Assembly: GCA_046045965.1 (NCBI GenBank)
Contig: JBJOKS010000008.1
Coordinates: 64,001 to 128,000, forward strand
Length of the DNA stretch: 64,000 nucleotides
Reading direction: 5' to 3'
From: Cyanobacteriota bacterium
GTDB lineage: Bacteria > Cyanobacteriota > Cyanobacteriia > Cyanobacteriales > Nostocaceae
A program made the position numbers and the translations under genes. Below the pieces are notes generated by a model, which was not told where the DNA came from, did not search any database, and saw only the letters and a list, made by a program, of their open reading frames with translations. This document shows, piece by piece, positions 1,471-29,759 of this stretch. Positions within the stretch are counted from its first letter, which is position 1; every line of letters starts with the position of its first letter.

Positions 1471-8148
<6,678 letters not shown>

Positions 8149-8149
8149 G

Positions 8150-11100
8150 TTATACCTCCTTGTTAAGTAGGTTTTGGATCTGTTTGAGTTTTTCGGTAAT
8201 CGCGTCCGTTGCTGGTTCTGGGGAAGTTGCTTGTTTGTCTCCAGAAACATCTACTGGTGGTTGTTGTTGACCATTGTTGGCAATTTCAACCGTCGCTGCT
8301 AGTTTTTCTGCCAAAACCTCTGTGACTAGATACTCAGCTAAAGACTCAATATTCGAGTATTCAAACAAAATTGTTGAGGAAACAGCACAACCCAAACTGG
8401 TTTGTAGCAAATTTCTTAACTCTAAAGCCAGCAAAGAATCCATTCCCATATCAAAAAATCCTAGTTGTGGGTCTAGCAGTTGAGTGTCAGGGAATCCTAG
8501 TAACTTACCGACAACACCTTGGAGATAAGTCGTCATTATTTGGAGGCGATCACTCGTTTTAGCTGCCTTTAGTTCTGCCAAAAACTCGTTAGTCTGAGTT
8601 TCTTGGACTACAGATTGAGAATCAATAAATGCCTCCAATACTGGCATCTTCATTCCTGCTGGCAATTGTGTGACAAATTGAGGCCAGTTCACAGGAAACA
8701 CCCCTACTGAAGTTGCAGATTGACCCAACAACCGATCTAAAAGTTGCAACCCCTGTTCTGGAGGAATGCTACCCATACCTAGAGAACGAATTCGGCTTTG
8801 GAATTGATCTGCTAACCGACTTGCCATACCGCTTTCTCCCCAAGCACCCCAGTTTACACTTAATCCTGGTAAACCTAGCGATCGCCGATGCTGTGCCAAG
8901 CCATCCAGGAAAGCGTTAGCGGCTGCATAATTACCTTGACCAGTTGAACCTAACAAAGATGCTGCTGAGGAAAAACCAACAAAGAAGTCCAACGGTAACT
9001 CCTGTGTTAATTGGTGCAGATGCCATCCCCCTTGAATTTTCGGAGCCATGACTTTTGTAAACCGTTCCCAGTTCATCTGCTGTAGAACCCCATCATCCAA
9101 GACTCCTGCGGCATGAATCACACCCCGCAATGGTGGTAGGGATGCCTTGATCTGTTCTACAATCCTGGCTGCATCTTGTTTAACCGCAATATCTGCCAAC
9201 AATACTGAAACTTGAACTCCGGTTTGTTCTATTTCGGTAATGGTTTGTTGTGCTGTTTCTGAGGGTTGCCGTCGTCCTGTCAATACCAAATGTTTAGCAC
9301 CCTTATCTGCCAGCCACTTAGCCAACTGTAGTCCTAACGCCCCCAGTCCACCAGTAATTAGATAACTGCCTTCAGGAGTAATGGTAATTTCTGGCTGTTC
9401 TTCAGTAATTGCCTGTTTTTGGCGTACCAGTCGCGCTACCCGACGTTCTCCCTGACGGTAAGCAATCTGATTTTCGTCTGTTGTTGAGCAGAGTTCTTGA
9501 TGTAGCTGTTGTACCAGTTCTGCTTCTGTGGTGTTCGCTTCTAAGTCAAGTAACCGACATTGCAGTTCTGGATGTTCGAGAGCTACCACCCGACCTAATC
9601 CCCACACTGGTGTTTGTTGCACTTGCACTGCTTCGCCGTCTGTACCCATACTCATCGCTCCTTGGGTGACTACCCACAAAGGAGCTACCTGTTGCTGTTT
9701 GGTCTGTACCAAAGCTTGTACCAGATGTAGCAGACTCGAACAACCAGATTCTATGGCTGTTTCTAACTGAATATCAGTTGTTGACAGATTCCACAGATGA
9801 ACAATTCCCTGAAGTTGTGAGTTTTGAGCAGTGATTTCACCTAACAGACGTTTAAATTCTTCGGGAGCAGTGGGATTAAGTTGATAGTGTTTTGCGTCTA
9901 TCTTTTGATAACTTAAACCAGGCGATACAAAAATACATCCTGTACCCAATTTTTGCACTAACCCTTGTGCCAAAGTCCCTGGTTCTGTAAATACTAACCA
10001 GTTTCCTGTTGTTTGTTGTGAAGGAGTTGAGGGTTTTTGGGCTTGCCATTCTAGTTCATAAAGCCAACGCTGTGGTGTTACCTCTGAATAAGATGATAGT
10101 TGAGCCAGTATTTGTTGATTCCACTCAGCTATTTTTTCCTTGGATAACTGTTGTTGCTTTTGAGCCGTTAGCAATACATAGCTGGCTATGCCTTTGCTGA
10201 GAACTTTACCTAATTGATAGTAAGATTTGAAACCAGACCTGACGTTATCATCACGATTTCTTTGATACAACTGCTCCAAACGTTCCTCAAAGTCTGCATC
10301 GTACAAAAAGTTAGATATTTCTGGACTCACATCAATGGCTGCAACCAATTGAAGATGATGTTCAGATAGTAACTCTACCCACTCTGATTTAGTAATAAAG
10401 TAGGAAGATGTTTCTTGGTGATCAATGGACAATTCGCTGTTAGAGATGAAATCTGCTAACACCAAATATCCCTGTTGATTCAAATGATTGCCGATATTGG
10501 TAAATAATGCTTTTTTATCGAGAATGTGGTGGGCAACTTCAAACCCAAATACTAAATCATAGTTGTCGGGAAACTCATCTTTGGCACTATCTCGATTAAA
10601 GATTTTTACCCGTTCTTGGAGTTGATTTTCGTCTGCTTTTGTGCTACCCAGTTTGGCTTGTTCACTGGAAATTGTGTAGCCATTCAATTGCAGATGTTCA
10701 TGTTTTTTGGCTAACTGAATTAAATCGGAAGCGTATCCACAGCCAAAGTCTAAAACTTTTTGACAAGCGGAAAAATCAACTTGAGCAAACAATAATTTTC
10801 TCAACTCTTTTTGAGACTCAAGAATCATCTGACGTGATTTTTCTTGATTCGGTTCGGTGAGACATTTAATCCAAGAAAAATCAGGTACTTTTTCCGGGAA
10901 TAACCCAAAGGTTAAGAATGCGGAGTCTGATTTTGCATCTTCCTGATTTCCAGCTTGTTCTTGACCCAAAATTGCGACAGCATTGTAATATTCGTGAACG
11001 ACACCACCTTTAAATTCCAGATAATTTTGCTGTCTTTTAACCAAAAGTCCCAGTAATTTTGGCAGTAATTCTCGCTCTTGTGCGGTCAGTTCCCCAGCTA

Positions 11101-13951
11101 ATTCTAATTCCTGAGCTAACCCCTCTGTTGCACCTTGGTTGAGCAATTGCACAATTGGCGTTGAAACAGTTTTATCATTGTTTTGTTCCACTTCCTGCCA
11201 ATAGCGTTGCCGTTGAAATGGATAAGTTGGCAATGTTACTTTGCGACGGGGATAATCACTATCAAATCCTGACCAATCTATTGCTACTCCTTTTGTGTAT
11301 AGTTGCCCTAAACTGGAGAGGATTTGTTGCCAATCTTCTTGCGGTGGACGTAATGAAGGCAACCAAGTACCTACTTCTTCTGGTAAACATTGACGACCCA
11401 TTCCCAGGAGTATGGGTTTAGGTCCAATTTCCATGAAGATTTTATATCCTTCCCGATGCAAAGTTTGCATACTCTGGGCAAAATGTACTGGTTGTCGGAC
11501 ATGGTTTACCCAATATTCTGGGGTGGTGATGGCTGCTGTTGCCTGTTTTCCGGTGACATTAGAAATTATGGGTATGCACGGTTGATTGTACGTAATTTCT
11601 TGAGCAATAGCTGCAAACTCCCCTAACATTGGTTCCATCAGCGGGGAGTGGAAAGCATGAGACACTTGTAGGGGTTTGGTCTTGATTCCCATGTCTGCGA
11701 AATTCTGACAAATTGCTTCTATGGCTTCACCAACACCAGAAATCACAATACTGTCTGGACCATTGATAGCTGCGATTGCTACTTTATCTGCATAAGTGGC
11801 AATTGCTTCCTTTACCTGCGACTCTGAGGCCAAAACGGATACCATCTCTCCACCGCTGGGTAACTGCTGCATTAACCTGCCCCTAGCTGCAATCAGTTTT
11901 AGTCCATCTTCTAGGCTGAATACGCCGGCTATAGTTGCTGCTACATATTCGCCTACGCTATGACCCATGACTACATCTGGTTTGATGCCCCAAGATTGCC
12001 ACAATTTAGCCAAAGCGTATTCTATGGCAAAAAGCGCAGGTTGAGTGTATGCAGTTTGATCTAAAAGTGCGGAATTTTCTACCAGTGCTGTTGATTGTGG
12101 ATAAAGCACCGATAACAAAGGCTGATCTAGGTAAGGACGCAGAATTTCATTACATTCTTCCAAAACTTGCCTAAAAGTGGGTTGAGTTTGGTATAGTTCC
12201 CAACCCATATTTACATACTGGCTACCCTGACCTGTAAACAGAAAAGCTACTTTAGGTGAACTTGTGCTAGTTGAGATTTGACCAGAAAATAGTCCAGTAA
12301 CTTCCTTACCTGCGGACAGATTGCTGAGTTTTGTAGCGAGTTCAGCTTTATCACCAGTAATCACTGCCAGTCGATGATTAAAATGCGATCGCCCTGTATT
12401 TGCGGTGTAACAAATGTCTTTTAGCTCTAATTCTGGATGATTTTCCAGATGTTGGGCATAACTACGAACTAATTCTTCCAGAGCCTTGGGAGTTTTTGCT
12501 GAGAGAGATAATATATCTAATTTACGTTCTAAAGATTCTTCTGATGGAACTTGTGCTGGTGCTTCTTCCAAAATTATATGCACGTTTGTCCCACTAATTC
12601 CGAAGGCACTGATACCCGCCATCCTGGGCTGATTACCGACATTCCAGGGAATTGCTGAAGTAGGAACTACCAAAGGCAGTTGATGCCAAGGAATATGGGG
12701 ATTGGGTTGGTTTAAGTGCAAATGGGGTGGTATTTCTTGATTCTGAAGCGATAAAACCACCTTAATCAAACCAGAAACTCCTGCTGCTGCTTCCAAATGC
12801 CCAAAATTGGTTTTGACTGAACCTACTACCAAGGGTTGATTTATGGGGCGATTTTTGCCATAAACTGCTGCCAAAGACTCTAACTCAATCGGATCTCCCA
12901 GAGATGTTCCAGTGCCGTGCGCTTCCACATAGCTGACTTGATGCGGCTCTACTCTCGCATTTTGTAGTGCTTGCTGAATTACTTCTTTCTGAGCCATTTT
13001 GTTGGGAACTGTCAGACCGCTACTTGGTCCGTCATGGTTGACAGCCGAACCTCGAATCACCGCTAAAACGTTATCACCATCAGCTATAGCATCGGAAAGA
13101 CGTTTTAGAACTACCATTCCACATCCTTCTCCCTGTCCATAACCATCTGCGGAAACATCAAATGTTTTGCAGCGACCATCTGGAGCTAAGGCTTTCAATT
13201 GGCAACGAGCAATAGTGCTGAGTGGCCAGAGAATCAGATTTACTCCACCGGCGAGGGCAAGATTAGATTCTTGGGAACGCAAGCTCTGGCAAGCTAGATG
13301 GACAGTTAGTAATGAAGAGGAACAGGCAGTATCTAGCTGAATATTCGGACCTTGTAAGCCAAGGAAGTGAGAAATACGACCTACAGCCATACTGCGGGCG
13401 TTACCTGTACCAGAATGACTATCAAATAAGTGGAGCTTTTCCAGACTCACATTCCGTTGGCCATAGTCATCTGTGCAAATACCTACATATACACCTGTTT
13501 GGCTATTTCTGAGTTTTGTTGGTGTTTGTCCGGCATTTTCTAGAGCTTCCCAAGTAACTTCTAAAAGCAGTCTTTGTTGAGGGTCTAAACTTACTGCTTC
13601 TCTGGGAGAAATCCCAAAAAATACAGGATCGAACTGGTCTACTTTTTCGATAAAACCACCTTGTTTGGTGTATGTTTTCCCAGGTTTATCGGGATTGGGA
13701 TCATAGAAGGCATCAACATCCCAGCGACCAGGTGGGACTTCTGTTACACCATCAATACCTTCATGCAATAAACGCCAGAATGAGGCAGAGTCATTGGCAT
13801 TACCAGGAAATCTGCAACCTAAACCAATAATGGCAATAGGTTCAGTTTTTTCTTTGTTGACTGCTTCCAGTCTATTTCGCATTTCTTTGATAGTTTGAAG
13901 CACTTGTTGAGAGGAAACAATTTGTTGTTCTGTCTCTGAATTATTAGTCAT
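8150..13951 (-). CDS. Type I PKS module KS-AT-O-methyltransferase-KR-ACP (CurL-like)
   Basis: Intact KS triad; [24 protein letters not shown] and GFEVAHH placed between AT and KR; KR LDD; ACP MGMDSL. The likely start is ATG at 13951 (MTNNSE), just past the upstream stop. Confidence 0.93.
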
Positions 13952-13952
13952 T

Positions 13953-16900
13953 TTATATTTCTTGGTGAAGTAAAAGTTGAATTTCTTTAAGTTCATCCTG
14001 AAGAGCAGTCGCAATTAGTTCCTCTTGAATGGCCTTGGCGATCGCTTCTTCATCTAATGCTTTGAGTTCTCTATCAACAAACTGTTGTTGATTCTCATTG
14101 CTATCAATTTCCAATTTCTGCTCTAATTCCCCTCCGAAAATCTTTGTTATTAAATACTTGGCCAGCTTTTGAATATTAAAATGCTCAGACAATGTGGTTA
14201 CTGAAATAGAACAATTGAAACTTGTTTCTAATAGATTCCTGAGTTCGAGCATCGTCGAATAGTTCATACCCATATCAAAGAATCCTAACTGTGAATCTGG
14301 ACTTTGGGTATCATCAAATCCTAACAATTGAGTAATCAAATCTTGCAGGTAATTTATCATTAGCTGCTGGCGTTCTCCCTGGGGAGTTTTCTCCAGTTTT
14401 TGGAAAATTCCTAAGTCTTGTGCTGGCGATTGATCATATTCTTGAAACCGAGTAGTTAAAATTTTTAGGAGTTTAGGTAGCAATTTTTGCTCTTGTTCTG
14501 TCAGTTGTTCCTGGAAATTCAACTCATCTGCTAACTGCTCCGTATTAATTTTATTTAGTAATTCAGCAATTGTATTTAGGCTATTGTCCAGGATATCTTG
14601 TTGATGTCCATTTTGTTGATTTCTTTTTTCAGAAGTTTCCAGCCAATAGCGTTGTCTTTGAAACGGATAAGTAGGCAGTGCTACTTTGTGTCTCGGATCA
14701 TCTCGGTCAAACCCGGACCAGTCCACTTTCACCCCTTTTACATACAACTGCCCTAAACTGGAAAGCATCTGTTGCCAATCTTCTTGATCAGGATTTAATG
14801 AAGGCAAGCATAATCCCAAATCTTCTGATAAATATTGCTGTCCTATTTCTACGAGTATTGGCTGCGGACTAATTTCCAAAAATAGTTTATATCCTGACTG
14901 ATGCAGAGTTTGCATACTCTGAGTAAAATCCACAGGTTGTCCGATCTGGTCTATCCAATATTCAGGAGTGGCAATTTCTGATGTGGCTTTTTCTCCAGTT
15001 AGATGAGATATGATCGGGATCTGAGGCTGGCTGTAGGTAACTCCTTTAGCTACCGCTTCAAATTCCCCTGATCTAGATTCTACGAGCCTTGCTCTAGTTG
15101 TAATCAGTTTCAGTGCATCTTCTAAGCTGAATACTCCAGCAACAGTTGCTGCTACATATTCGCCTATACTATCACCCATCACCACATCTGGTTTGATGCC
15201 CCAAGATTGCCACAATTTAGCCAAAGCGTATTCTATGGCAAAAAGTGCTGGTTGGCTATAAGCGGGTTGGTCTAGTAGAGATGAACTTTGCTTATCTATG
15301 GTTGGAGGATAGAGAACGGAAAGCAGGGGATATTCTAAATCACCACGGAGAATTTGATCACATTGGTCGATGGCTTGCCGAAATACAAATGTTTTTTGAT
15401 ACAAATCCTTTCCCATTTGTACATACTGGGAATCTTGAGCGGTGAATAAGAAGGCTACTTTCGGCGAACTAGCATTGCTAGGTAATTGCCCGGAAAATAG
15501 TCCATTTACCTGTTCAGCTTGTAAATAATGATGGAGTTTTTCTGCTAATTCTTGTTGGTTAGTGGCGATCGCAGCTATTCGATGGTTAAAGTGGGCGCGT
15601 CCAGTATTGGCTGTATAACAAATGTCTGCTAGTTCCAATTCCCGATGATTTTCCAGATGATTGCGGTAAAGACTGACTAACTCTTCCAGAGCTTGTGGAG
15701 TTTTCGCCGACAAGGTTAATAGATGAAGTGGACGTTCGCTGGCATTCTCTATTTTCGCTGGAACGGGGGCTTCTTCTAAAACGACATGAGCATTGGTACC
15801 ACTAAAACCAAAAGAGCTAACCCCCGCAATTCGTGTTTGCGAATTAACTGACCAAGGAGTGAGTTGAGTTGGGACACTAACTGGTAGTTGATCCCAGTTG
15901 ATGTAAGGATTAGGCTTCTTCAGATGCAAATGGGGAACAATTTCCTGATGTTGCAATTGTAGGACGACCTTGATCAGACCTGCTATACCCGCCGCCGCTT
16001 CTAAGTGACCCATATTGGTCTTGAGTGAACCAATCATCAAGGGATTTTCTTGGCAATGATTCCCACTAAATACTGCCCCTAATGCCCCCACTTCAATGGG
16101 GTCTCCCAGAGATGTACCTGTACCGTGGGCTTCAATATAACTGACCTGGGATGGTTCAACCCCGCCATTTTCTAAAGCCTGAGAAATGACTTTTTGCTGG
16201 GATGGTCCATTGGGTACTGTCAAACCGCCAGAAGAACCATCATGGTTAATGGCAGAGCCTCGAATCAATGCTAAAATATTATCTTGGTTTTTGATCGCAT
16301 CTGAGAGTCGCTTGAGGACAATCACACCACAACCTTCCCCCCGCACATAACCATCCGCGTCGGCATCAAAGGTTTTACAACTACCATCAGGAGATAACAT
16401 TCTCGCCCGTGAGAAGACGATGCTGCCTTCTGGTGAGAGCAGCAAGTTTACCCCACCTGCTAAGGCCAGACTACACTCCTGCTGACGCAAGCTTTGACAG
16501 GCTAAGTGTACAGCGACTAAGGAAGAAGAACAAGCGGTATCTACAGCCAAAGAAGGTCCAGTTAATCCCAGAAAGTATGAAAGTCTGCCGGCAACAGTGC
16601 TGTAAGCATTGCCAGTGCCAAAATAAGCATTGAGTTCCTTAGCTGCTGAAAGTCTTCTAGCGTAATCATTATTACAAATACCAATAAATACTCCTGCGGG
16701 GCTGTCAGATAACTTTTCAGGGACTTGATGAGAATCTTCTAGGGCTTGCCAACTCACTTCCAGCAATATGCGCTGTTGGGGATCAAGACTCATTGCTTCC
16801 CGAGGTGAAATATTAAAGAAACTCGCATCAAAAGTCTCTACGTCATTGACAAAACTGCCGTAACGGGTATACATTTTGCCGATCGCATTGGGATCGGGGT

Positions 16901-17150
16901 CATAGTAGGCATCAGCATCCCAGCGAATTTTCGGCACTTCGGTAATGGTATCGACTCCATCGCGCAAGATCCGCCATAATACTGCTGGATGATCAATTCC
17001 TCCTGGGAATCGGCAGCCCATACCAATAATTGCAATTGGTTCAGTCTGGGCATATTCTAAAGCATCCAACTTAGATTGCATCTTCTCTAGTTGAAGTAGA
17101 CCATCTGCCAGCAAAGACTTATAGTCTATACTTCTTGGCTCTTGCTTCAT
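13953..17150 (-). CDS. Degenerate PKS module KS-AT0-ACP0 (intact KS, inactive-looking AT and ACP)
   Basis: [22 protein letters not shown] is intact. The AT has TAQDSQ for TGQGSQ, GDSIG for GHSVG, and lacks the segment containing HAFH. The ACP reads GMNYSTM instead of GMDSL. No KR. Confidence 0.88.
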   Translation of the reverse strand: MKQEPRSIDYKSLLADGLLQLEKMQSKLDALEYAQTEPIAIIGMGCRFPGGIDHPAVLWRILRDGVDTITEVPKIRWDADAYYDPDPNAIGKMYTRYGSFVNDVETFDASFFNISPREAMSLDPQQRILLEVSWQALEDSHQVPEKLSDSPAGVFIGICNNDYARRLSAAKELNAYFGTGNAYSTVAGRLSYFLGLTGPSLAVDTACSSSLVAVHLACQSLRQQECSLALAGGVNLLLSPEGSIVFSRARMLSPDGSCKTFDADADGYVRGEGCGVIVLKRLSDAIKNQDNILALIRGSAINHDGSSGGLTVPNGPSQQKVISQALENGGVEPSQVSYIEAHGTGTSLGDPIEVGALGAVFSGNHCQENPLMIGSLKTNMGHLEAAAGIAGLIKVVLQLQHQEIVPHLHLKKPNPYINWDQLPVSVPTQLTPWSVNSQTRIAGVSSFGFSGTNAHVVLEEAPVPAKIENASERPLHLLTLSAKTPQALEELVSLYRNHLENHRELELADICYTANTGRAHFNHRIAAIATNQQELAEKLHHYLQAEQVNGLFSGQLPSNASSPKVAFLFTAQDSQYVQMGKDLYQKTFVFRQAIDQCDQILRGDLEYPLLSVLYPPTIDKQSSSLLDQPAYSQPALFAIEYALAKLWQSWGIKPDVVMGDSIGEYVAATVAGVFSLEDALKLITTRARLVESRSGEFEAVAKGVTYSQPQIPIISHLTGEKATSEIATPEYWIDQIGQPVDFTQSMQTLHQSGYKLFLEISPQPILVEIGQQYLSEDLGLCLPSLNPDQEDWQQMLSSLGQLYVKGVKVDWSGFDRDDPRHKVALPTYPFQRQRYWLETSEKRNQQNGHQQDILDNSLNTIAELLNKINTEQLADELNFQEQLTEQEQKLLPKLLKILTTRFQEYDQSPAQDLGIFQKLEKTPQGERQQLMINYLQDLITQLLGFDDTQSPDSQLGFFDMGMNYSTMLELRNLLETSFNCSISVTTLSEHFNIQKLAKYLITKIFGGELEQKLEIDSNENQQQFVDRELKALDEEAIAKAIQEELIATALQDELKEIQLLLHQEI

Positions 17151-20100
17151 TTTATGTTTTCCCCTTTGAGGCTAGATAGTTTTTGGGCAAATAGGTTAGC
17201 AATTTCATCTTGAGACATTTCTTGTAATTGATCTTTGAATTGATCCAAGGAATCAGCCTCCGGCTCTGGGGCTTTTAAGTTAGAATCAGATGAAACAAAA
17301 AACTCCAGAGAAAGAACATCTGACACCAGATGATCCACCAGCTTTTCCAATGTAGGATAGTCAAACAGGACTGTAGAACTGATGGATTTCCCTAAACTGG
17401 ATTGGAGATGATTTCTCAACTCCACCGCCATCAAAGAATCTATTCCCAAGTCAAGTAACGATTCTCGTAACCCTATCTGCTTAGGTAATGTTACCCCCAA
17501 AACTTTGGCGGCTTGCTCCTGAACATGAATCACTAACAACTCCCGACGCTCTTCCACTGGAGTCACTTCCAGTCGCTGCATAAAATTGGACTTCCCTTTC
17601 CCCATATTTGACTGCCCCATCGTGGAAGTAAAAGCCTCCAAAAACGGCATCTTAGTCCCAATAGGTAACTGCTTCAAGAAATCAGACCAGTTGATTGACA
17701 AGACTCCCACCTGAGTAGCATCTTGTGCCAACAAGTCAGCCAATACCTGCAAACCTCCTTCAGCAGAAATGGGAATGAGTCCCTGAGTCAATATTCGATG
17801 CTGATGCTGACTTCCCAGACGTGCAGCCATTCCTCCTTCCGCCCACGGTCCCCAGTTAACACTCAGTCCCGGTAAACCCATTCCTCGTCGATAGTGAGCC
17901 AAGGCATCCATGAAAGCATTAGCGGCTGAATAATTCCCTTGACCTGGTGACCCCAGCACGGAAGCGATGGAAGAGAAACAAATGAAAAAGTCCAACGGTA
18001 GATGCTCAGTCAAGGTGTGCAGATACCAAGCCCCTTGGACTTTCGGTGCCATCACTTGTGTAAATCGCTCCCAACTCATCTGTTGCATTAAACCATCATC
18101 CAATACCCCCGCTGCATGAACTATACCTCGTAACGGTGGTAAAGATGTTTCGATTGACTCCAGAATTTTAGTCACATCTTCTGCTTGGGAGATATCCCCA
18201 CACAGAACTAATACCTGTACTCCTGCCTTTTGCAATTCTTCAATGCTTTGTTGAGACAAATCTGATGGCGGTTTACGTCCAGTAAGGACTAAATGTTTGG
18301 CTCCTTGTTCTGCCATCCACTTCGCTGTATGTAACCCCAGTGCGCCCAAACCCCCGGTAATTAAGTAACTGGCTTCGGGTTGAATCGAAGCTGGTTTTTC
18401 ATCAGTTTCATCAGCTTGTGGCATCGATACTACGACCTTGCCAATGTGTTTGCCTTGCTGCATATAGCGAAAAGCTTCCACAACCTGTTCGATGTCAAAG
18501 ACTTTATGAGGTAAAGGCTTTAAATAACCTTGTGCAAATTGCTGTCCCAAACAGTCCATGATTTGGGTAATTAAACCCGGATTTTCTTGAGCCACTTCCC
18601 CTAAGTCGAAGGGAAAATACTGAGCATCTGGTCTTTTCTGTTTGACCTGATCTTCATCCCAAATCCCAATTTTGCCAATTTCCACGAACCGCCCCCCGGG
18701 CGCTAAAACCTCAAAGCTCTTGGTAATAAATTCCCCATTCAGACTATTGAGTACCACATCCACACCCTGTCCCTGGGTAAGATGCATGACTTCTGCGGCA
18801 AAATCTAAAGTCCGGGAGTTCATCAGATGTTTCACACCCATAGATTTGAGAAATTCCCATTTGGAAGGGCTGGCCGTCGCAAATATTTCTGCTCCCGCTT
18901 GTTGTGCTATCTGCACTGCTGCTTGCCCCACTCCTCCTGCCGCAGCATGAATTAATACTCTGTCTCCTGGTTGAATTTTCGCTAGGTTATGTAACCCATG
19001 ATAAGCAGTGGAGAAGACTAAGGGAATGGTTGCTGCTGCAAATGAGTTCATCTGTTTGGGTTGAAGAACTACAAACTCGGCTCTGGCGGTGATAAAACTA
19101 CTCAAAGCACCAGGCAGAAGGTTGGCCATCACTTCATCCCCCACTTGCAAATGAGAAACCCCTTCTCCAACTGCCACAATTGTGCCGGCACATTCAAACC
19201 CAAAAGTCAGTTGTTCGGCACTGGTAATGCCGAGATGTTGGGCATAGTAATCTTTCAGCAGCCCTAAAGCATTCAGTACATCGCGGAAATTCAGTCCTAC
19301 AGTTTTCACTCTTATTTCCACTTCCTGTGGACCTGGGGAGCGACGTTCCATTGGTTGTAAGCTGAGATTGTCTAACAACCCATATTCTGATAACTTCAGT
19401 TGGAATGGTTGTTGCGAGGAAATTTCTAATCTGCCTTGTGTGGATCTTAGAGCTTTTTGTTGCCGTGTTAACCTGGCAACATGACGTACCTGTTGACGGT
19501 AAGCGATTTGGTTTTCATCACCAGGGGATAATAATTCCTGCAACAAAGTTGGTACTGCTTGGAAATCTTCTCCAGCAGGATCTAAGTCTAAACACCGACA
19601 TTGTAATTCCCCATTTTCCTGGGCAATTGTTCGCCCCAGTCCCCACAGTGGGCTTTGTTGAAACTGTATATTATGTGACTTATTACCCACTGATTGAGCG
19701 CCTTGAGTCACTAGCCACAATGCAGGGGGATTTTTTATTTGTTGATTTTTGACTATAGCTTGTACTAAGTGAAGTACGCTGCCACAACCCAATTCTTGGG
19801 ACTTTTGCAACTCCTGTGCCGATGTTGGTGTTGTTAGTGTTGCTTGTAAACTCCACAGATGGACAATTCCTCGTAATGGGGGTTGCTGCTCTAAGCTCTC
19901 TTGCAATAGGCGCGGGAATTCACTGACATTAATCGGATTGATTTGATAATGATGGGATGCTAACTGCTGATAATTCTCCCCTGGTGTCACTAAGATACAA
20001 TGCTGACCTTGTTTTTCTAAGGATTCTGCCAGTTGTTTGCCTATACCTGTGGGTGGGGAAAACAGTAGCCAGCTACCTGGTTTTGTTAAGTCAATGGATT

Positions 20101-23100
20101 GGTTTGCCGGTGACGTTGATTGCGGTTGCCAATGGATTTGATATAACCAATTACTGACATCTGGTCTGAGAGTATTTAGTAAGGCTTGGCGAGAAGTACG
20201 TAATACGGTTAAACCTTCTACTTGAGCTACTACTATTCCCTGTTCATCCAATATCCGGACAACACCTGTCAACGTTCGTTCATTGGTTTTGATTGCACCT
20301 ATCTCTACTTGCGTCCACAGATGATTACTAGCAGGACGATAAACTTGTAGCCGTTTTATGTTGACTGGTAAGTAAGTACTCTGATTTTCAGTTTCATCAA
20401 AAGCAGCAGCCAACAGATGGAAACTAGCATCTAACAGCACGGGGTGCAGTTGGTATTTTGTTGCTTCTGGGACTAAGGTTTCTGGTAACTGAATTTTACC
20501 TAGTGCTTTTCCTTGACTGCGCCACAGTTGCTGAACAGCTTGGAAACTTGAACCGTAATCAATGCCTCTATCTCTATACTCTTGGTAGAAGTCTTGAGGT
20601 GATATTTGTTGATGATACTCGGCTTTAATGGCTTTTAAGTCCGTTTTTTCTAGTTCATCATCCTGATCCCCTGCCAGCAATTTTCCTTGTGCATGTAGAA
20701 TCCACCTCGATTCTGACTTCTGAGAATCCATCTCCAGACTCAAAATCTCGAAACTATAAGTTTGCGCTTCTTGTGGGGTTAATACAACCTGAATCGTTTT
20801 GATTTCATCTTCTGATAAAATCAGTGCTTGTTGAATAACAACATCTTCTAGGATTAAATTTTCTGATTTGAATAAAGTTGCACCTGCTGCTAAAGCTATT
20901 TCTAGATAACCTGCTCCTGGAAAAACGGGTTTAGAAAAAACACAATGGTGTTGCAGGTAAGTCGGATGGGAAGCACTGAGAAGGCACTGAAAACGAATTT
21001 GCTGTTCTAAGCCAGCTAAATACAATCTCTGACCAAGTAGAGGGTGAAGATTCTCATGGTTTGATAAAAATTGGGTTTTATTCGTCAGATTATTATCTGT
21101 CTCCCAATACCGTTGCCGTTGAAAGGGATAGGTGGGCAACACCACTTTACTATGGGAATAATCTTGCTCAAAGCCTAACCAATCTACTTTCATTCCCCGC
21201 ACATATAATTCTCCCAAGCTCTGTAGTATTTGTTGCCAGTCTTCTTGACCCGAACGCAAAGAAGGCAACCAAACCCCAACTCCTTCTGGCAAACACTGTC
21301 TTCCCATCCCTAACAATATTGGTTTGGGTCCTATTTCTAGGAAGATTTCATAACCTTCTTGGTGCAATGTCTCCATGCTTTGGGCGAATTTCACTGGTTG
21401 GCAGACATGATTTACCCAGTAGCTGGCTGTGGTAATACTCTCGTCGGCTCTTGCTCCTGTGACATTCGATATCAATGGAATCCGAGGTTGATGGTAGGTT
21501 ATTTGATTGGCTACTGCTTCAAATTCCGCTAACATCGGTTCCATTAAGGGTGAATGAAAAGCATGAGATACTTGTAGCTGTTTGGTCTTGATTCCTTCTG
21601 CTTCTAAGCTCTCCCTCAGTTTTCCAATGGCTTCTGCTTCACCAGAAATGACAATGCTCACAGGTCCGTTGATGGCAGCTATGGCCACTTTTTCTGTGTA
21701 TGGGGCAATCAGTTGATTTACTTTCTCTGGGGATGCCATCACAGCTAACATCTCACCACCGTGAGGTAACTGCTGCATTAACCGTCCCCGATGGGCTATC
21801 AGTTTGAGTCCATCTTCTAAACTAAATACTCCTGCTACACAAGCTGCGACATATTCCCCAACACTATGACCCATCACCCCATTTGGTTTCATCCCCCAAG
21901 ATTCCCATAACTTAGCCAGGGCATATTCAACGGCAAATAAGGCAGGTTGAGTATACGCGGTTTGGTCTAGCAAAGAGGAGCTTGACGCTTCCTGCGTGTT
22001 AGGATAAATAATTTCTAGAAGTGTATGTTCCAGATAGGAACTGAGGATTTGCTCACATTGATCTAAAGCTTGGCGGAAAGTCGGCTGAGTTTCATACAGT
22101 TGTCGCCCCATGTTCAGATATTGGCTACCTTGACCTGTGAATAGGAAGGCTACTTTGGGCGCACTGCTACTACTTGGTAGTTGTTCTGAAGATATTCCTG
22201 CTGCTTCTGACCCGGCTTTGTGTTGCAGAAGTTTTTCTGTTAGTTCCTGTTGGTCAGAGGCGATAATGGCTAGACGATGGTTGAAGTGGGCGCGTCCAGT
22301 ATTGGCTGTATAACATACATCTGCAACTGCTAATTCTGGATGAGTTTCTAAATGATGTTGATAACGACTGACTAAATCTTCAAGGGCTGTTTCTGTTTTT
22401 GCCGATAAGGTTAATATATGGAGTGGACGTTCTAAATTATCTTCACTTTTGCCTGGGGATTTTTGATTTTTGACTGGCTCAGGAAATTCTTCCAAAACTA
22501 TATGGGCATTAGTGCCTCCCATGCCAAAAGAACTAATCCCTGCTATTCTTGCTTGACCTGGACAAGACCAAGGCATTAATGAGGTAGGAATTTTTATCGG
22601 TAATTTATCCCAATCTACATGGGGGTTAGGTTGTTTAAAGTGTAAATGAGGTGGAATTTGCTGATGCCCAAGTGCTAAAACCACCTTAATCAAAGCTGAT
22701 ACACCTGCTGCTGCTTCTAAATGCCCAAGATTAGTCTTTACTGAGCCAACAACCAAAGGTTGATCCACTGGACGATTTTTGCCGTATATTGCTGCTAGAG
22801 CTTCTATCTCTATGGGATCTCCTAAAGAAGTTCCTGTGCCGTGAGCCTCGACATAGGTTATTTGATGGGGTTCTAACTTGGCATTTGTCAGTGCTTCTTG
22901 AATGACCTGTTTCTGAGCCATTCTATTGGGAACTGTGAAAGCACTACTTGGTCCATCGTGGTTAACAGCAGACCCTCGAATCACTGCTGAGATTAAATCA
23001 CCATCAGCAATAGCATCGGATAAACGCTTTAAAACTACAACACCACATCCTTCTCCCTGACCATAACCATTGGCAGAGGCATCAAAAGTCTTGCAACGAC

Positions 23101-23875
23101 CATCTGGAGATAGTGCTTTTAATTGGCAGCGACCTATCGTGCTGGTGGGCGCTAAGATCAGATTGACTCCACCTACTAATGCTAAGTTGGATTCTCCTGA
23201 ACGCAAGCTCTGAGAAGCCAGATGGATAGCAACTAGAGAACTTGAACAAGCTGTGTCTATCTGTATATTAGAGCCTTGTAAACCCAATAGATGAGAAATA
23301 CGACCGACACCAACACTTCTACTCTTACCGAGAGCAGAGTAAGTACCAGCACTTTGATTTTGGTGCATGATACTCAAGGCAGAATAGTCATCTGTGGAGA
23401 TGCCGATGAAAACACTTGTCTTGCTATTCTTCAGGTTAGCCCATGTTTGTCCGGCATTTTCCAGTGCTTCCCATGTCACTTCCAACAGTAGTCTGTACTG
23501 AGGATCTAAACTAATTGCTTCCCGAGGAGAAATTCCAAAAAATAGGGGATCAAACTGGTCAAATTGATCAATAAATCCCCCCTCTTTGGTGTAGGTTTTT
23601 CCAGCAACTTCTGGGTCTGGATCGTAATAAGCATTAACATCCCAACGCTGAGGAGGCACTGGTGTAATGGCATCTATGCCATCATGTAATAAGTTCCAGT
23701 ATGTCGATAGGTCATTAGCACCACCAGGAAATCGACAGGCCATGCCAACAATAGCGATTGGTTCGGTTTTGGCTTTATTTACTGCTTCCAGCTTACTTCG
23801 CATTTCTTTGAGAGCTTGAAGCACTGCTTGAGATGAGAAATTTTGTTGGGTTGTTTGAGAAATATCACTAGCCAT
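17147..23875 (-). CDS. Type I PKS fully reducing module KS-AT-DH-ER-KR-ACP (CurK-like)
   Basis: KS triad; AT GHSVG/HAFH; DH HPLLG...[10 protein letters not shown] and [39 protein letters not shown]. The stop overlaps the next start (ATGA). Confidence 0.95.
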
Positions 23876-23876
23876 T

Positions 23877-26800
23877 TTAGTTCTCCTCCTTTAGCAAAGC
23901 CTGGATTTCTTGTAATTCTGCCGCGATCGCAATATCAATTTCCTCTGGCGTTTCCCTATTGGGAGGAGGTACATTTGGCAGATTTTGACTGTTTTTAAGT
24001 TCAAGTTCTTGGTCTTGACCTTCTGGGAAAATTTCCTTAATTAAGTATTCTGCCAAGTCTTGGATATTAGAAGTCTCAAACAATGTAGCCGTACTAATAG
24101 AACAACCAAAAGTAGAACTCAACAGATTTCTCAATTCGACAGCAATCAATGAATCCATTCCCATTCTAAAGAATCCTAATTCTGGCTGAGGAAGTTGAGA
24201 TTTCGAGAATCCTAATAAGTTACCTATTTTTACTTGAAGATAATGAATCATAATTTGGTGGCGTTCAATCTCGACTGCTGCTTTCAGTTGTTCCAAAACT
24301 TCTTGACTCTTGGTTTCTTTCTGTTGTTTTGAAACCAATGCTTCTAAGCATGGCATTTTTACACCACCAGGCAAATGTTCGGCAAATCTAGACCAATTGA
24401 TCGGAAATACTCCTACTTGACTGACTGGCTGTGATAATAGCTCTCCTAATATCTGTAATCCTTTTTCTTGAGTTATAAAACTCATTCCTGTTGCACGTAG
24501 CCGATTTTGATGTTGACTTCCTAGACGAGCTGCCATTCCCCCTTGCTCCCAAGCCCCCCAGTTGATGGTTAATCCTGGTAATCCCATGCTCTGACGATAG
24601 TAAGCTAAAGCATCCATAAAGGCATTCGCCGCCGCATAGTTTCCTTGACCTGCTGAACCAAGTAAGGATGTGATGGAGGAAAAACAAACAAAGAAGTCTA
24701 GTGGTAGTTTCTGAGTTAAGTGATGTAAATGCCAAGCTCCTTGTAATTTTGGAGCCATAACTTTCCGAAACCGCTCCCAGTTCATCTGCTGTAAAACACC
24801 ATCATCTATGATTCCTGCTGCATGAATCACACCTCGTAATGGTGCTGGAGATTCCTCAATCAGCTTCAGGATACTAGCGACATCTTGTTCCTCAGATATA
24901 TCTCCTAGTCTGACTGATATTTTTGCTCCTGTTTGTTCCAACTGCTGAATAGTTTCCTGGACTCTTGCTGAGGGGGGGCGACGTCCGGTTAATACTATAT
25001 GTCGCGCGCCCTGTTTAATCATCCATTGAGCTACTTCCAATCCCAAAGCTCCCAGACCACCAGTCACTAAATAACTTGCTTCTGGTTTTAGTGTTATTTG
25101 TTGCTGTTGTTCTGAGATTTGATCTGGCGATCGCCTGACTAATCTAGCTACATAACGCTCTTTTCCACGGATGGCTATTTGGTCTTCATCGTCAGGATTT
25201 AATATTTCCTTGGCTAATGCTTCTAATGTTTCTGAGCTTTGGGTTTGGTCTACATCAACTCGCCGACATTTTAGCTCTGGGTGTTCTAATGCTATCACCC
25301 GACCCAAACCCCATAAAGGTGCTTGCTGTACTTTTACTTGCTGTTGATTTTCTTCTACATTTTGTGTTTCTTGGGTCACTAACCATAGAGGTACTACTGA
25401 TCTCGGATCTGATCCCATTGCTTGCACTAAATGTAGTACACTTGCACACCCTAGTTCTTGAGCAGTTTCCAACTCTTCTGTTGAGGTATTAATACTCCAT
25501 AAATGAACGACTCCTACTAATTTATTTTGAGTAGTCAACAACTCTTTTATTAGTTGTTTAAACTCTTGGGCATTGGTGGGGTTCAGTTGATAGTGTTGCT
25601 TGTCTAACTGATTGTAGCTAGATCCAGGAGTGACGATGACACAATTCTGATTCTGTGCTTCTAAAACTGTTTTTAACTCTTGGGTTGGTTCGTCGGCAGC
25701 GAATATTAGCCAATTCCCTGTCTCCTTTGGTGAAATTGACTTTTTCTGGGGAGATTGCGTGACTTTCCATTTCAATTCGTAAACCCATTGTTTAACTGCC
25801 ACTTCTGAGTAAGATAACAGTTGACTTAGAATTTGTTGGTTCAACTGATAAATTTGCTGTTTGGGAATTTCCTCTTGTTTTTTAGCCGTTAATAATACAT
25901 AGCTGGCTAATCCTTTTCTGAGCAGCTTTCCTAACTGATTGTAGGAGCGAAAAGCAGATTTAATATTCTCGTCATGACTTTTTTGCTCTAATTCATGTAG
26001 ATTATCTTCAAATTCAGGATCTTCCAAATAGTTAGCTATTTCCTGACTGATATCTATGGCTTGAATGAGTTGCAGATGATTTGTTGATAGTTGCTCTACC
26101 CAATGCTGTTTGGTAATAAAGTAAGAGGAAGTTTCTTCATGGTCGATATCAAAGTCTCCATTGGCAATAAAATCTGCCATGACTAATAATCCTGCTTCCT
26201 GAAGATGCCTACTTATATTAGAAAATAACAGGGATTTATTTTTAATATGATGAGCTACTTCAAATCCAAATACTAGGTTATAGTGATCAGGAAATTCATC
26301 TTTGGAGCTATCTCGGTTAAAAACTTGGATCTGCTCTTGCAGTTGATAGGCATGAATTTGGCTTGTGGCAAATTTAGCTTGTTCACTGGAAATCGTATAA
26401 CCATTCAGTTGCAGGTGTGGGTAAGTTTTGCCTAATGTGATTAAATCTGAGCCATATCCACAACCAAAATCTAATACTTTCTGACAGGACGAGAAATCTA
26501 CTTGTGCAAAACACAGGTTTCTTAGCTCTTTCTGTGACTCTAGCAAAGCTGTTTGATATGTTGGGTTTTGATGGGGGTTGGTAAACACTTTTACCCAGCA
26601 AAAACCAGGGATAATTTCTGGTAATATCCCAAAGGTGATGAATTGTAGTGATTTACCTTCTGTCTGTTCTTCTTGGCTTAACTTTGCTTTACTAACTTCT
26701 GTAAAGGAATTATAGTAATCATGAACTACATTGCCTTTAAATTGAGAAGAATTTTGATGCCGCTCAGTTAAAATTCTGAGCAACTTGGGTAACAATTTTT

Positions 26801-29759
26801 GTTCGTCTTCCGTTAATTGTGCCGATAACTTCAGTTCTTGAGTTAATCCTTCTGTATCACCTTGATTCAGTAAGTTAACAACCAAACTTGAGCTTTCTTT
26901 GACAGTGTTCTCATATTTGCTTTTGGAAGTATCGATCCAATAACTTTCCCTCTGAAAGGGATAGGTGGGCAATGCTACCTTCTGACAGCTATACTCTTGC
27001 TCCAACCCTGACCAATTTACCTTCACTCCCTGCACATACAACTGCCCTAAACTTTCTAACATCTGCTGCCATTCTTCTTGAGGAGGACGCAGCGAAGGCA
27101 ACCAAACTCCCACTTCTTCTGGTAGACATTGATGCCCCATCCCCAGCAAAATGGGCTTGGGTCCGATTTCCAAGAACAGTTTATAACCTTGATCATGCAG
27201 AGTTTTCATACTCTCGGCAAACCGCACTGGTTGCGTGACATGATTCACCCAATATTCGGCAGTAGTCATTTCCGAATCCACTTGTTTGCCAGTGACATTA
27301 GAAATAAGTGGTATTCGAGGGTTGTTGTAGGTGACTTGTTTGGCTACAGCTTCAAACTCTGCCAGCATTGGTTCCATCAGAGGGGAGTGGAAAGCATGAG
27401 AGACCTGTAGGGGTTTGGTCTTCAGTCCCATAGCTTCTAACTTGCTACAAATATCTCTGATGACATGACTCACACCTGAAATCACGATGCTGTTGGGACC
27501 ATTGATGGCAGCTATAGCTACTTGTGAAGTATAGTCTGCTAGAGTCTCTCTTAAGAGCGATTCTGATGCCATCACTGAAACCATTTCTCCTCCTGGGGGC
27601 AACTGTTGCATTAACCGCCCCCTTGTCGCTATCAGTTTCAGAGCGTCTTCTAAACTAAAAATTCCTGCCACACAAGCTGCTACATATTCCCCGACACTGT
27701 GACCCATGACGACATCTGGCTTAATGCCCCAGGATTCCCATAACTTAGCTAGGGCATATTCAAAGGCAAATAGCGCAGGTTGGGTATAAGCGGTTTGGTC
27801 TAGTTGCTTTGATTTGGATTCATCTATAGTGTGAGGATAAAGAACTTCTAGTAGAGGATGTTCTAACTCCGTTCGGAGGATTTGGTCACATTGGTCTAGG
27901 GCTTGACGGAAAACTGGCTGTGTTTGATACAGTCGCCGTCCCATGTTTAGATATTGGCTCCCTTGTCCGGTGAAGAGGAATGCCACTTTGGGTACACTGG
28001 TGCTGCTAGGGAGTTCTTTTGAGAAGACTCCGGCTACTTCTTCTCCGGCAGCATAGTTGAGCAGTTTTTCGGCTAATTCCTGTTGGTTGTAGGCGATCAC
28101 GGCTAAACGATGGTTAAAGTGCGATCGCCCTGTGTTGGCAGTGTAACAAATGTTGGTGATCGGATCTTGTCTGTGAGTTTTCAGATGATTGTGATAAAGA
28201 CTGACTAACTCATCAAGAGCTTTTTCTGTTCTTGCTGACAGCGTTAATATATGTGGACGCTCTAAAGAATCCTCATGTTTAATTTTTGAAGTTTGAATTT
28301 TGATTTCAATTGGTGCTTCTTCTAGAACCAGATGAGCATTAACTCCACCAAAACCGAAGGAACTTATACCAGCCCGCCGTGGAATCACCTCTTTTGTTTC
28401 TGTCTCTAACTGCTGCCATTCTTGAGTTTCACAGACTATATAAAAGGGGCTACCCTCTAACTCAATGCGTGGATTTAATTGCTGAAAGTTAGTTATCTTG
28501 GGCAATTTCCTATGCTTCATTGCTAATAGGACTTTAATCACCCCAGCAATTCCAGATGCTGGTTCCAAATGCCCAATATTTGTTTTAACTGCTCCTAGTC
28601 CACAATAGGGCTTTTGCAAGCTGGGTAACTCATACTGCTGATGCAGCTTTCTAAAGCTTCGTTTCAGGGCATTAATTTCAATTGGGTCTCCCAAGGGTGT
28701 GCCAGTACCATGAGTTTCAATATAAGAGACTGTATTAGGAGCGATATTAGCTTTAGTATACGCAGCCAGAACCACTTGGGATTGGGCATAAATATTTGGA
28801 GAAGTTAGGGTTCGTGCCTTGCCACCATGATTGACAGCACTGCCTTTGATTACACCGTAGATGTGATCGTTGTCCTCAATCGCTTTGATCAGAGGCTTTA
28901 ATAAAATTACCCCTGCGCCTTCTCCCCTAACATAGCCATCTGCTTGACTGTCAAATGTTTTGCACTGTTCGGTGGGAGATAACATCCCCAATTGACTAAA
29001 GGAGATGTAACTTGTAGGCGTACACAAAACACTTACTCCACCCACCAGTGCCATCTCACATTCGGATTCTTTGATAGAATTGATGGCTTGATGAATTGCT
29101 ACTAGTGAACTGGAGCAAGCTGTGTCTACAGGTACACTAGGACCATGAAAATTGAAAAAGTAGGAAATTCGATTGGCAATGATGGTGGTATAAGTTCCTG
29201 TTGCAGTATGCCCTTCAATCAATTTTTCATCCTGGTACTGTAACTGATCGTAGTCATGGTTACAAACTCCAAGAAACACACCTACAGGACTACCAGACAG
29301 GTCTAATGGCGAATATCCAGCGTCTTCTAAACAAGACCAACTCAACTCCAGCATGATTCTTTGCTGAGGGTCCATGCGTTGCGCTTCTCTAGGGGAAATG
29401 CCGAAAAATTCGGCATCAAATTTGTCTACCCCTTCAATTATTCCTCCCCATTTACTGATGCTTTTGTGTGGCTCTTGAGGATTGGGAGAATAATACTTCT
29501 GCACATCCCACCTCTGGGGGGGAATTTCGGTGATGCTATTGACTCCTGCTTCCAGGTTGAGCCAGAATTGCTCGTAATTATTAGCTCCTGGAAAGCGACA
29601 ACCAATACCTATAATAGCGATAGCGAAGCGATCCGTAGGAATCGCTTCACTCTTGTGTTGCTCTGTTTCTTCAGTTTGGTTGGTTGGTTGCTTTTGTATT
29701 TCCACTTCTTGTTGACTGGAAGAAAAATTCTCTTGATCTTGTTGGGAATTTTGATTCAT
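23877..29759 (-). CDS. Type I PKS first module KS-AT-O-methyltransferase-KR-ACP
   Basis: [46 protein letters not shown] and GFEVAHH; KR IDD; ACP MGMDSL. No loading domain. Confidence 0.93.
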   Translation of the reverse strand: MNQNSQQDQENFSSSQQEVEIQKQPTNQTEETEQHKSEAIPTDRFAIAIIGIGCRFPGANNYEQFWLNLEAGVNSITEIPPQRWDVQKYYSPNPQEPHKSISKWGGIIEGVDKFDAEFFGISPREAQRMDPQQRIMLELSWSCLEDAGYSPLDLSGSPVGVFLGVCNHDYDQLQYQDEKLIEGHTATGTYTTIIANRISYFFNFHGPSVPVDTACSSSLVAIHQAINSIKESECEMALVGGVSVLCTPTSYISFSQLGMLSPTEQCKTFDSQADGYVRGEGAGVILLKPLIKAIEDNDHIYGVIKGSAVNHGGKARTLTSPNIYAQSQVVLAAYTKANIAPNTVSYIETHGTGTPLGDPIEINALKRSFRKLHQQYELPSLQKPYCGLGAVKTNIGHLEPASGIAGVIKVLLAMKHRKLPKITNFQQLNPRIELEGSPFYIVCETQEWQQLETETKEVIPRRAGISSFGFGGVNAHLVLEEAPIEIKIQTSKIKHEDSLERPHILTLSARTEKALDELVSLYHNHLKTHRQDPITNICYTANTGRSHFNHRLAVIAYNQQELAEKLLNYAAGEEVAGVFSKELPSSTSVPKVAFLFTGQGSQYLNMGRRLYQTQPVFRQALDQCDQILRTELEHPLLEVLYPHTIDESKSKQLDQTAYTQPALFAFEYALAKLWESWGIKPDVVMGHSVGEYVAACVAGIFSLEDALKLIATRGRLMQQLPPGGEMVSVMASESLLRETLADYTSQVAIAAINGPNSIVISGVSHVIRDICSKLEAMGLKTKPLQVSHAFHSPLMEPMLAEFEAVAKQVTYNNPRIPLISNVTGKQVDSEMTTAEYWVNHVTQPVRFAESMKTLHDQGYKLFLEIGPKPILLGMGHQCLPEEVGVWLPSLRPPQEEWQQMLESLGQLYVQGVKVNWSGLEQEYSCQKVALPTYPFQRESYWIDTSKSKYENTVKESSSLVVNLLNQGDTEGLTQELKLSAQLTEDEQKLLPKLLRILTERHQNSSQFKGNVVHDYYNSFTEVSKAKLSQEEQTEGKSLQFITFGILPEIIPGFCWVKVFTNPHQNPTYQTALLESQKELRNLCFAQVDFSSCQKVLDFGCGYGSDLITLGKTYPHLQLNGYTISSEQAKFATSQIHAYQLQEQIQVFNRDSSKDEFPDHYNLVFGFEVAHHIKNKSLLFSNISRHLQEAGLLVMADFIANGDFDIDHEETSSYFITKQHWVEQLSTNHLQLIQAIDISQEIANYLEDPEFEDNLHELEQKSHDENIKSAFRSYNQLGKLLRKGLASYVLLTAKKQEEIPKQQIYQLNQQILSQLLSYSEVAVKQWVYELKWKVTQSPQKKSISPKETGNWLIFAADEPTQELKTVLEAQNQNCVIVTPGSSYNQLDKQHYQLNPTNAQEFKQLIKELLTTQNKLVGVVHLWSINTSTEELETAQELGCASVLHLVQAMGSDPRSVVPLWLVTQETQNVEENQQQVKVQQAPLWGLGRVIALEHPELKCRRVDVDQTQSSETLEALAKEILNPDDEDQIAIRGKERYVARLVRRSPDQISEQQQQITLKPEASYLVTGGLGALGLEVAQWMIKQGARHIVLTGRRPPSARVQETIQQLEQTGAKISVRLGDISEEQDVASILKLIEESPAPLRGVIHAAGIIDDGVLQQMNWERFRKVMAPKLQGAWHLHHLTQKLPLDFFVCFSSITSLLGSAGQGNYAAANAFMDALAYYRQSMGLPGLTINWGAWEQGGMAARLGSQHQNRLRATGMSFITQEKGLQILGELLSQPVSQVGVFPINWSRFAEHLPGGVKMPCLEALVSKQQKETKSQEVLEQLKAAVEIERHQIMIHYLQVKIGNLLGFSKSQLPQPELGFFRMGMDSLIAVELRNLLSSTFGCSISTATLFETSNIQDLAEYLIKEIFPEGQDQELELKNSQNLPNVPPPNRETPEEIDIAIAAELQEIQALLKEEN

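Follow-up and report, generated by a model that had tools for sequence, protein, structure and literature searches.

A ketosynthase module with an inactivated carrier protein in cyanobacterial polyketide synthases: a candidate priming subunit for a putatively iterating O-methylating module

The stretch of DNA analysed here (the window: 64,000 nucleotides of a Nostocaceae genome, GenBank assembly GCA_046045965.1, contig JBJOKS010000008.1, positions 64,001 to 128,000) encodes on its minus strand a cyanobacterial polyketide synthase (PKS) of the cis-acyltransferase (cis-AT) type, with five modules, M1 to M5, and a DUF6208 gene. The third module, M3 (13953..17150, 1065 aa), referred to as the ghost, carries a live ketosynthase (KS) in front of a dead AT and an acyl carrier protein (ACP) in which tyrosine has replaced the phosphopantetheine-bearing serine. 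M3 is a real, selected variant of modular PKS logic, previously unrecognised within the literature searched. With slightly better than even probability, it acts as a priming subunit for the adjacent and putatively iterating module M4, such that the KS of M3 (KS3) would condense the incoming chain with malonyl carried by the ACP of M4 (ACP4). The initial annotation had mentioned the priming of iteration as a mere possibility; it is now the best reading.

From its N-terminus, M3 consists of a docking region (17043..17150), the KS (15771..17042), the AT remnant (14706..15458), a post-AT helical element (14436..14579), the pseudo-ACP (14139..14405), and a conserved C-terminal docking helix (13956..14060), all on the minus strand. 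In an alignment with the four sister modules, the KS motifs DTACSSS (16541-16521), EAHGTGT (16133-16113), and MGHLE (16013-15999) are intact. The AT has AQD in place of GQG (15440-15432) and GDS in place of GHS (15176-15168), and has lost 78 residues including HAFH in frame (approximately 15063-15089), a stretch that we take to be the small ferredoxin-like AT subdomain. The retained Cys-His-His of the KS and the AT lesions are thus as initially annotated, with the loss of roughly 80 residues refined to 78. The ACP motif GMDSL reads GMNYS, i.e., three in-register substitutions that put Tyr964 (14261-14259) at the carrier serine position. The post-AT element contains EQKLLPKLLKIL (14492-14457) and leads through a short linker into the ACP; no O-methyltransferase (OMT) or ketoreductase (KR) was found in M3 with Pfam. 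This element most resembles those of the OMT modules M1 and M4 (27/50 and 24/50 identical residues), the resemblance noted at the outset, and it has a weak counterpart in M5 as well (15/50). The C-terminal helix bears a doubled A-I-A-x-A motif and belongs to the type found at the C-terminal ends of M1 and M4.

The M3 open reading frame has no internal stop. The M2 stop overlaps the M3 start (ATGA) and M4 starts one base past the M3 stop, so that the frames are coupled on both sides, and the frame and translational coupling described in the initial annotation are indeed preserved. In an AlphaFold model of M3 (mean pLDDT 67, pTM 0.49), the domains are folded, including the AT remnant, a four-helix ACP, and a single long C-terminal helix, while their relative arrangement is of low confidence. 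Foldseek searches with this model return ordinary KS-AT didomains only, the best fold match being the CurL KS-AT (4MZ0).

Assembly error as the cause of these lesions was rejected on the basis of independent contigs. Contigs of four runs from four other studies, none of them flagged as a possible source of the assembly of the window, cover all 30 bins of 8150-28000. The pieces 13149-14801 (X3), 13711-14523 (X6), and 15666-17436 (X4), which take in the ACP region and both gene junctions, show no differences. The AT deletion is not bridged by any contig piece among the matches listed; the same deletion end is found in homologues. The M3 stretch also occurs in two metatranscriptome assemblies; as a contig is no proof of transcription, these are not used here as expression evidence.

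Residue conservation was followed in an alignment of 25 ghosts, comprising M3 of the window, 19 of 25 database matches, and five further loci. Left out were three partial sequences that all carry Tyr (P0002, P0016, and P0021), P0005, an ordinary OMT module (P0024), and a sequence with a mostly deleted ACP (P0025). The KS residues Cys207, His342, Lys377, and His382 are kept in 25/25 ghosts, and the ACP serine position holds Tyr in 24, His in one, and Ser in none. The AT His is kept in only 8/25 sequences, the AT Ser in 11/25, and HAFH in 2/25; the deletion occurs in at least five lengths (about 60, 70, 74, 78, and 82 aa), and one ghost (L070/P0022) has a whole AT. Because the KS is constant, the ACP serine is always missing, and the AT varies, the family is best described as a dead ACP behind a live KS, with AT decay being secondary. 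Of the lesions whose conservation in homologues was to be checked, that of the ACP is therefore general and those of the AT are not, and the latter were rejected as a family signature.

The residue that follows the ACP Tyr is Ser in 18/25 ghosts and Ala, Leu, Thr, Lys, or Pro in the rest. This lack of conservation disposes of the “shifted serine” of the initial annotation, while the substitution itself stands. It also bears on the possibility that the M3 ACP is loaded after all, via the neighboring serine or in some unusual way, in which case M3 would be a KS-ACP module fed by another AT. The ACP fold, a substitution ratio like that of a working ACP (see below), and the frequency of the neighboring serine are in line with such loading. 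This serine is, however, replaced in 7/25 ghosts including close relatives (L035 and L038), Tyr or His occupies the canonical position, and the domain is deleted in L044, which makes a loaded ACP highly improbable.

Selection was assessed by pairwise codon counts (NG86-type, Jukes-Cantor, codon bootstrap) on seven Nostocales ghosts. The ratio of nonsynonymous to synonymous substitution (dN/dS) is 0.16 for the KS, 0.21 and 0.25 for the AT halves, 0.38 for the post-AT helices, 0.21 (0.13-0.30) for the ACP, and 0.25 for the C-terminal dock. All region intervals lie below 1, and the per-domain check thus places every region in the purifying range. The M4 domains of the same genomes give 0.07-0.25 (0.17 for the M4 ACP), and a 15-genome set agrees with the seven-ghost set but is near saturation. 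In 19 ghost genes, the ACP Tyr codon is TAT in 14 and TAC in four, with the segment missing in one. A scan of genome contigs with the C-terminal half of M3 yielded 69 loci, 17 of which, from 16 cyanobacterial genomes (Nostocales and Oscillatoriales-type families), contain a ghost with an open frame of 1016-1165 aa; no frameshift or stop was found in the ghost in these 17 loci. A pseudogene was thus rejected (no frameshift or stop, dN/dS well below 1), and M3 is a selected, conserved part, as had been supposed. That it is a decaying remnant without function would agree with the many ways in which the AT motifs erode and with a Tolypothrix PCC 7601 plasmid, which holds an intact ghost beside a truncated M4; the unbroken frames, the dN/dS intervals, and the co-occurrence with M4 in 10/10 genomes (see below) render decay extremely improbable.

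On that plasmid (L142, 13427-19436), M4 is cut at approximately residue 918 and no M5 was found in the stretch shown. The gene cysC lies upstream of the cluster on this related plasmid. With its intact ghost and cut M4, L142 represents a natural negative control.

The ghost is closely associated with M4. An M4 orthologue, with a KS that is 85-95% identical, lies directly downstream of the ghost in 15/17 loci. A search for the M4 OMT in 389 genomes of the family gave matches in 12 genomes, 10 of them at 89% or more, and the ghost is present in 10/10 of these. In the metagenome data, the ghost precedes M4 at 6/6 loci that contain M4. The genome, family, and metagenome sets overlap in genomes and kin are not independent; these counts are not additive. 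In G020, the ghost and M4 are on separate contigs, M4 having no adjacent ghost. The cassette is rare, because the M4 OMT occurs in 3/401 genomes of a phylum-wide sample and the ghost C-terminus in 7/401 genomes of an order-wide sample. No match to the sulfotransferase-thioesterase (ST-TE) was found in three of the five genomes tested (G020, G293, and G062).

Several variants of the cassette were observed. One (L068, 3372-20119) includes an acyl-AMP ligase, a 454-aa protein without a Pfam match, and a thioesterase-ended module, while in another (L070) the ghost AT is intact and three further modules are present. A second, stand-alone ghost with an M1-type KS (L049, 8342-11509) shares a genome with L048, so that there could be two entry routes into one M4.

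The two halves of the ghost have different histories. The trees used are quick trees that do not include L040, and clade tests were run without the long-branch L068 row. In a tree of 50 rows and 90 columns, the 16 Tyr-ACPs group as a single clade (support 99) nested within that of the OMT-module ACPs (100). This nesting supports a single origin of the Tyr-ACP from an OMT-KR module that lost its OMT-KR, in agreement with the methyltransferase-KR deletion first suggested from the direct junction of the post-AT element and the ACP. The 18 ghost KSs, by comparison, fall into five or six lineages, and a single clade is rejected (p-AU 2.6e-34). The nearest tree neighbors of KS3 sit after reducing modules. 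In 10/17 loci (L035-L040, L043, L044, L049, and L099), the ghost KS is of the M1 type and no PKS module lies directly upstream; thus, the ghost is the entry point in those loci. Other ghosts follow modules with dehydratase (DH) and KR domains, fully reducing modules, or an acyl-AMP ligase (L068). At L041, L045, L048, and L059, the DH-KR module before the ghost would add an internal alkene.

The N-terminal dock varies in type along with the KS and the C-terminus of the upstream module, while the C-terminal dock is fixed. Since the front of M3 tracks its upstream partner and its rear is constant, M3 behaves like a docking adaptor. The adaptor role proposed in the initial annotation is borne out to this extent, but its specificity for M2 is not, given the 10/17 loci with no upstream PKS module. 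M3 of the window is itself a mosaic, which resembles the L042 ghost as far as approximately codon 630 (73-95% nucleotide identity) and the L035 ghost thereafter (81-97%); the recombination seam is at 15260-15350 (M3 codons ~600-630). This mosaic suggests that a three-gene cluster acquired M1-M2 and a new KS by recombination.

An adaptor could also be a scaffold only, in which M3 bridges two docking types, the upstream ACP delivers directly to the KS of M4 (KS4), and KS3 is idle. Conservation of the C-terminal dock extends to L044, in which the ACP is deleted, and the constraint on a dead AT suggests structural selection, both of which fit a scaffold. However, a KS dN/dS of 0.16 and an unchanging active site do not fit an idle KS, the KS and the upstream context change together, and first-gene ghosts have no upstream module to bridge. 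A pure scaffold is therefore improbable.

M4 (8150..13951, minus strand) is a KS-AT-OMT-KR-ACP module, the OMT of which (10082-10996) matches the StiD/StiE O-methyltransferases. KS4 (16 rows) is found in a 32-row KS clade (support 99), in which the other 16 rows are M5-type (12) and M2-type (four). Fifteen of these 16 M2- and M5-type KSs are visibly located after an OMT-KR module, and the upstream gene of the remaining one, L042, is cut. Because KS4 groups with KSs behind O-methylating modules, M4 probably iterates on its own product. KS4 itself follows a gene that is unable to methylate, and thus the simplest living source of a β-methoxy chain is the ACP of M4. M1, M2, M4, and M5 all have intact cis ATs, and neither a loading module nor a free-standing ACP was found in the cluster of the window. 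The closest dock likeness is that of the M4 N-terminal dock to that of M2 and of the M3 C-terminal dock to those of M1 and M4, from which the docking partners of M3 and M4 are predicted. With an M1 C-terminal dock (23877-23960) of the M3 type and an M4 N-terminal dock (13840-13951) resembling that of M2, M1 might bypass M2-M3 and add an unskipped series.

On the basis of these features, we propose the following sequence of events. The N-terminal dock and KS of M3 would receive the incoming chain through a docked upstream ACP, i.e., the saturated M2 product in the window, or a starter acyl group in three-gene clusters. The C-terminal dock would keep M3 on M4, while the M3 ACP would carry nothing. 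KS3 would then condense the chain, in a FabH-like manner, with malonyl placed by the AT of M4 on ACP4, the sole live carrier downstream; with ACP4 loaded in this way, the M3 AT would be redundant, which would explain its repeated decay. The KR and OMT of M4 would convert the product to a β-methoxy chain. KS4, a β-methoxy acceptor that would never be refilled from upstream, would take this chain back for several loops, and the docked but empty M3 ACP would take away competition for the reopened KS4. Finally, M5 would remove the chain and its ST-TE would release a 1-alkene.

The initial annotation envisioned M3 as a relay that hands the chain to ACP4. In a non-elongating version of this, KS3 passes the chain unchanged to holo-ACP4, KS4 is loaded, and KS4 makes all C–C bonds. 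The conservation, the docking swap, and the live Cys fit such a relay equally well, and a product series of variable length cannot separate relay from condensation by count. Non-elongating KSs usually lose the first His, whereas both His and the Lys are kept in 25/25 ghosts, and KS4 would need to take non-methoxy chains, contrary to its clade. Condensation by KS3 is favored over a plain hand-over because both KS histidines are kept and KS4 appears specialised for methoxy chains. A passive relay is thus unlikely, while transfer to ACP4, the predicted recipient, is kept in the proposal.

Alternatively, KS3 may itself be part of the loop, alternating with KS4 on ACP4. It is a live KS tethered beside M4, and MmpF provides a precedent for iteration by a degraded KS-AT that works with separate ACPs (PMC10098928). 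Participation of KS3 in the loop is nonetheless very improbable, as the M3 KSs derive from five or six lineages, none of which is in the β-methoxy clade, while KS4 is 85-95% conserved.

The product of the cluster, judging from the fit of architecture and taxa, is probably a series of polymethoxy-1-alkenes (PMAs). The cluster has the profile of a PMA synthase, with an O-methylating KR module, a terminal ST-TE, and fewer modules than methoxy groups. The CurM-like ST-TE, the StiD/StiE-like OMT, and the cysC gene next to the cluster on the related plasmid all fit this product. PMAs form an isotactic homologous series that ends in a terminal alkene and bears 5-12 methoxy groups, placed on every other carbon; a 4,6,...,18,22-nonamethoxy-1-pentacosene isomer has been reported, and a PKS origin has been suggested (PMC3497026). 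PMA production was described early on in tolytoxin-making Tolypothrix and Scytonema and in A. ovalisporum (PMC3497026). The cluster is found in Umezakia ovalisporum (L043), Tolypothrix (L036 and L040), Scytonema PCC 10023 (L038), and Anabaena UHCC 0451 (L035); the latter two strains are tolytoxin and scytophycin producers (PMC5772238). Strains in culture that carry the cluster include UHCC 0451, PCC 10023, PCC 7101, and NIES-22. The three-gene ghost-M4-M5 arrangement would produce the regular series from a C6 starter. In the product of the five-gene M1-M2-ghost-M4-M5 arrangement, a methoxy unit and a methylene unit would come before the repeats, leaving one methoxy missing near the tail; with a C4 starter, this would match the 22-methoxy isomer.

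Sponge-derived polymethoxydienes, comparable to the internal alkenes predicted for the DH-KR loci, are also cited in PMC3497026. In G293 (C92, 147640-158463), M4 of the ghost-M4 pair lacks a C-terminal dock, and a stand-alone thioesterase-like gene and an LCM methyltransferase come next; this variant may make polymethoxy acids or esters. Orphan PKS clusters are listed for the strain named for P0018 (PMC5259702).

Several observations weigh against the proposed function and product. Elongation by a KS on the ACP of a downstream protein is abnormal for cis-AT systems. The ghost is not followed by M4 in 2/17 loci (L042 and L049), with unrelated genes downstream in L042. In L044 and L132, most of the pseudo-ACP is deleted while the rest of the cluster is intact, and thus the pseudo-ACP is not essential everywhere. 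The clade signal of KS4 could be inherited from a time when M3 was a whole OMT-KR module, and the clade rule is not strict, since the KS after M4 in L068 falls outside the β-methoxy clade. As for the product, the 22-methoxy isomer needs a C4 starter and the pentyl-tailed series a C6 starter, with the starter source lying outside the cluster. Published PMA sources also include Raphidiopsis, Microcystis, and green algae (PMC7077266), none of which is among the named cluster matches. The cluster and a PMA analysis were not found for one and the same strain, the overlap being at the level of genus or species.

Parts of this organisation have counterparts in known systems. Curacin CurL/CurM and the ST-TE of the olefin synthase likewise combine an OMT-KR module with a following KS-AT-KR-ACP-ST-TE but have no ghost module, and curacin assembly stays colinear here. 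In type II fatty acid synthesis, labor is divided between FabH and FabF, with priming and elongation assigned to different KSs that share an ACP; the likeness to M3-M4 is functional only, because M3 is a type I Cys-His-His KS and not a KAS III. Relative to a canonical cis-AT extension module, M3 has the KS Cys-His-His but lacks the AT motifs and the ACP Ser. The non-elongating KS0 modules of trans-AT systems similarly add no unit on their own ACP, yet the lesion is reversed: their KS is crippled, having lost the first His, and their ACP is live, while in M3 His342 is invariant and the ACP is dead. The term KS0 occurs in PMC10921412.

The closest parallel is MmpF of mupirocin biosynthesis, which also has a Cys-His-His KS on a truncated, non-catalytic AT, takes a starter, and elongates it on the ACPs of other proteins ahead of a downstream module (PMC10098928). 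M3 shares with MmpF-like didomains a live KS and a truncated AT without the catalytic dyad, but not the trans-AT context. MmpF has no ACP remnant, acts with free-standing ACPs, and iterates itself, whereas M3 has a dead ACP and a cis-AT docking helix and would feed an iterating neighbor. The cis-AT iterating modules of aureothin (AurA), borrelidin, stigmatellin, and azalomycin are inferred to be used several times over, with the downstream KS as gatekeeper (PMC10921412, PMC10098928). An upstream KS with a dead ACP is not noted for them in the parts of these papers available, and the system described here would differ by up to approximately 12 repeats, O-methylation in each round, and a variable count.

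The remaining modules of the cluster are M1 (23877..29759, minus strand), a KS-AT-OMT-KR-ACP module with the KS type of the first-gene ghosts; M2 (17147..23875, minus strand), a fully reducing KS-AT-DH-enoylreductase-KR-ACP module; and M5 (1471..8148, minus strand), a KS-AT-KR-ACP-ST-TE module with CurM-like terminal-alkene release, whose sulfotransferase and thioesterase match the CurM structures 4GBM and 3QIT (E ~1e-144). The DUF6208 gene (463..1446, minus strand) travels with the cluster. Together with it, a LamG-repeat protein (30050-35941), a GT4 glycosyltransferase (38049-39239), and an ABC1 kinase (39623-41392) are cluster neighbors in several genomes. The C-terminal third of the LamG gene encodes about 20 tandem six-residue acidic repeats (DDEELT/DDEEST) and a threefold, 48-residue ricin-lectin-like repeat. 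Elsewhere in the genome of the window (G000, contig C5, ~133700-221500) is a large trans-AT PKS with 19 KS matches and one stand-alone AT-like match. It shares 72% identity with the gene that flanks the cluster in L035 and is likely of the tolytoxin/scytophycin type.

PMAs, first isolated in 1979, have been reported as zebrafish teratogens from bloom-forming cyanobacteria (PMC3497026, PMC7077266), and a candidate PMA cluster would allow genetic monitoring. No description of a PMA gene cluster or of a dead-ACP priming module was found in the literature searched, outside of which lie most subscription journals and supplements. A wider proposal, to which we assign a little less than an even chance, is that the ghost and M4 constitute an unreported polymethoxy-1-alkene synthase and a portable polymethoxy cassette, with a previously undescribed looping rule: an upstream ACP is killed but kept docked, which stops the KS of the module from being refilled, while the upstream KS primes the ACP of the module. 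If this is true, the input of the cassette would be set by swapping the ghost KS and N-terminal dock, of which nature provides five or six versions, and its output by swapping the terminal gene. The ghosts represent natural KS-plus-dock swapping before a fixed module. With domain-prediction tools, M3 would be classed either as normal or as dead. New starters must be kept off an iterating KS (PMC10098928), a reopened module first favors the upstream ACP, and the mechanism of vectorial translocation has been called “a virtual mystery” (PMC11907408). A two-protein system with a dead upstream ACP would offer a direct test of what stops or allows back-transfer.

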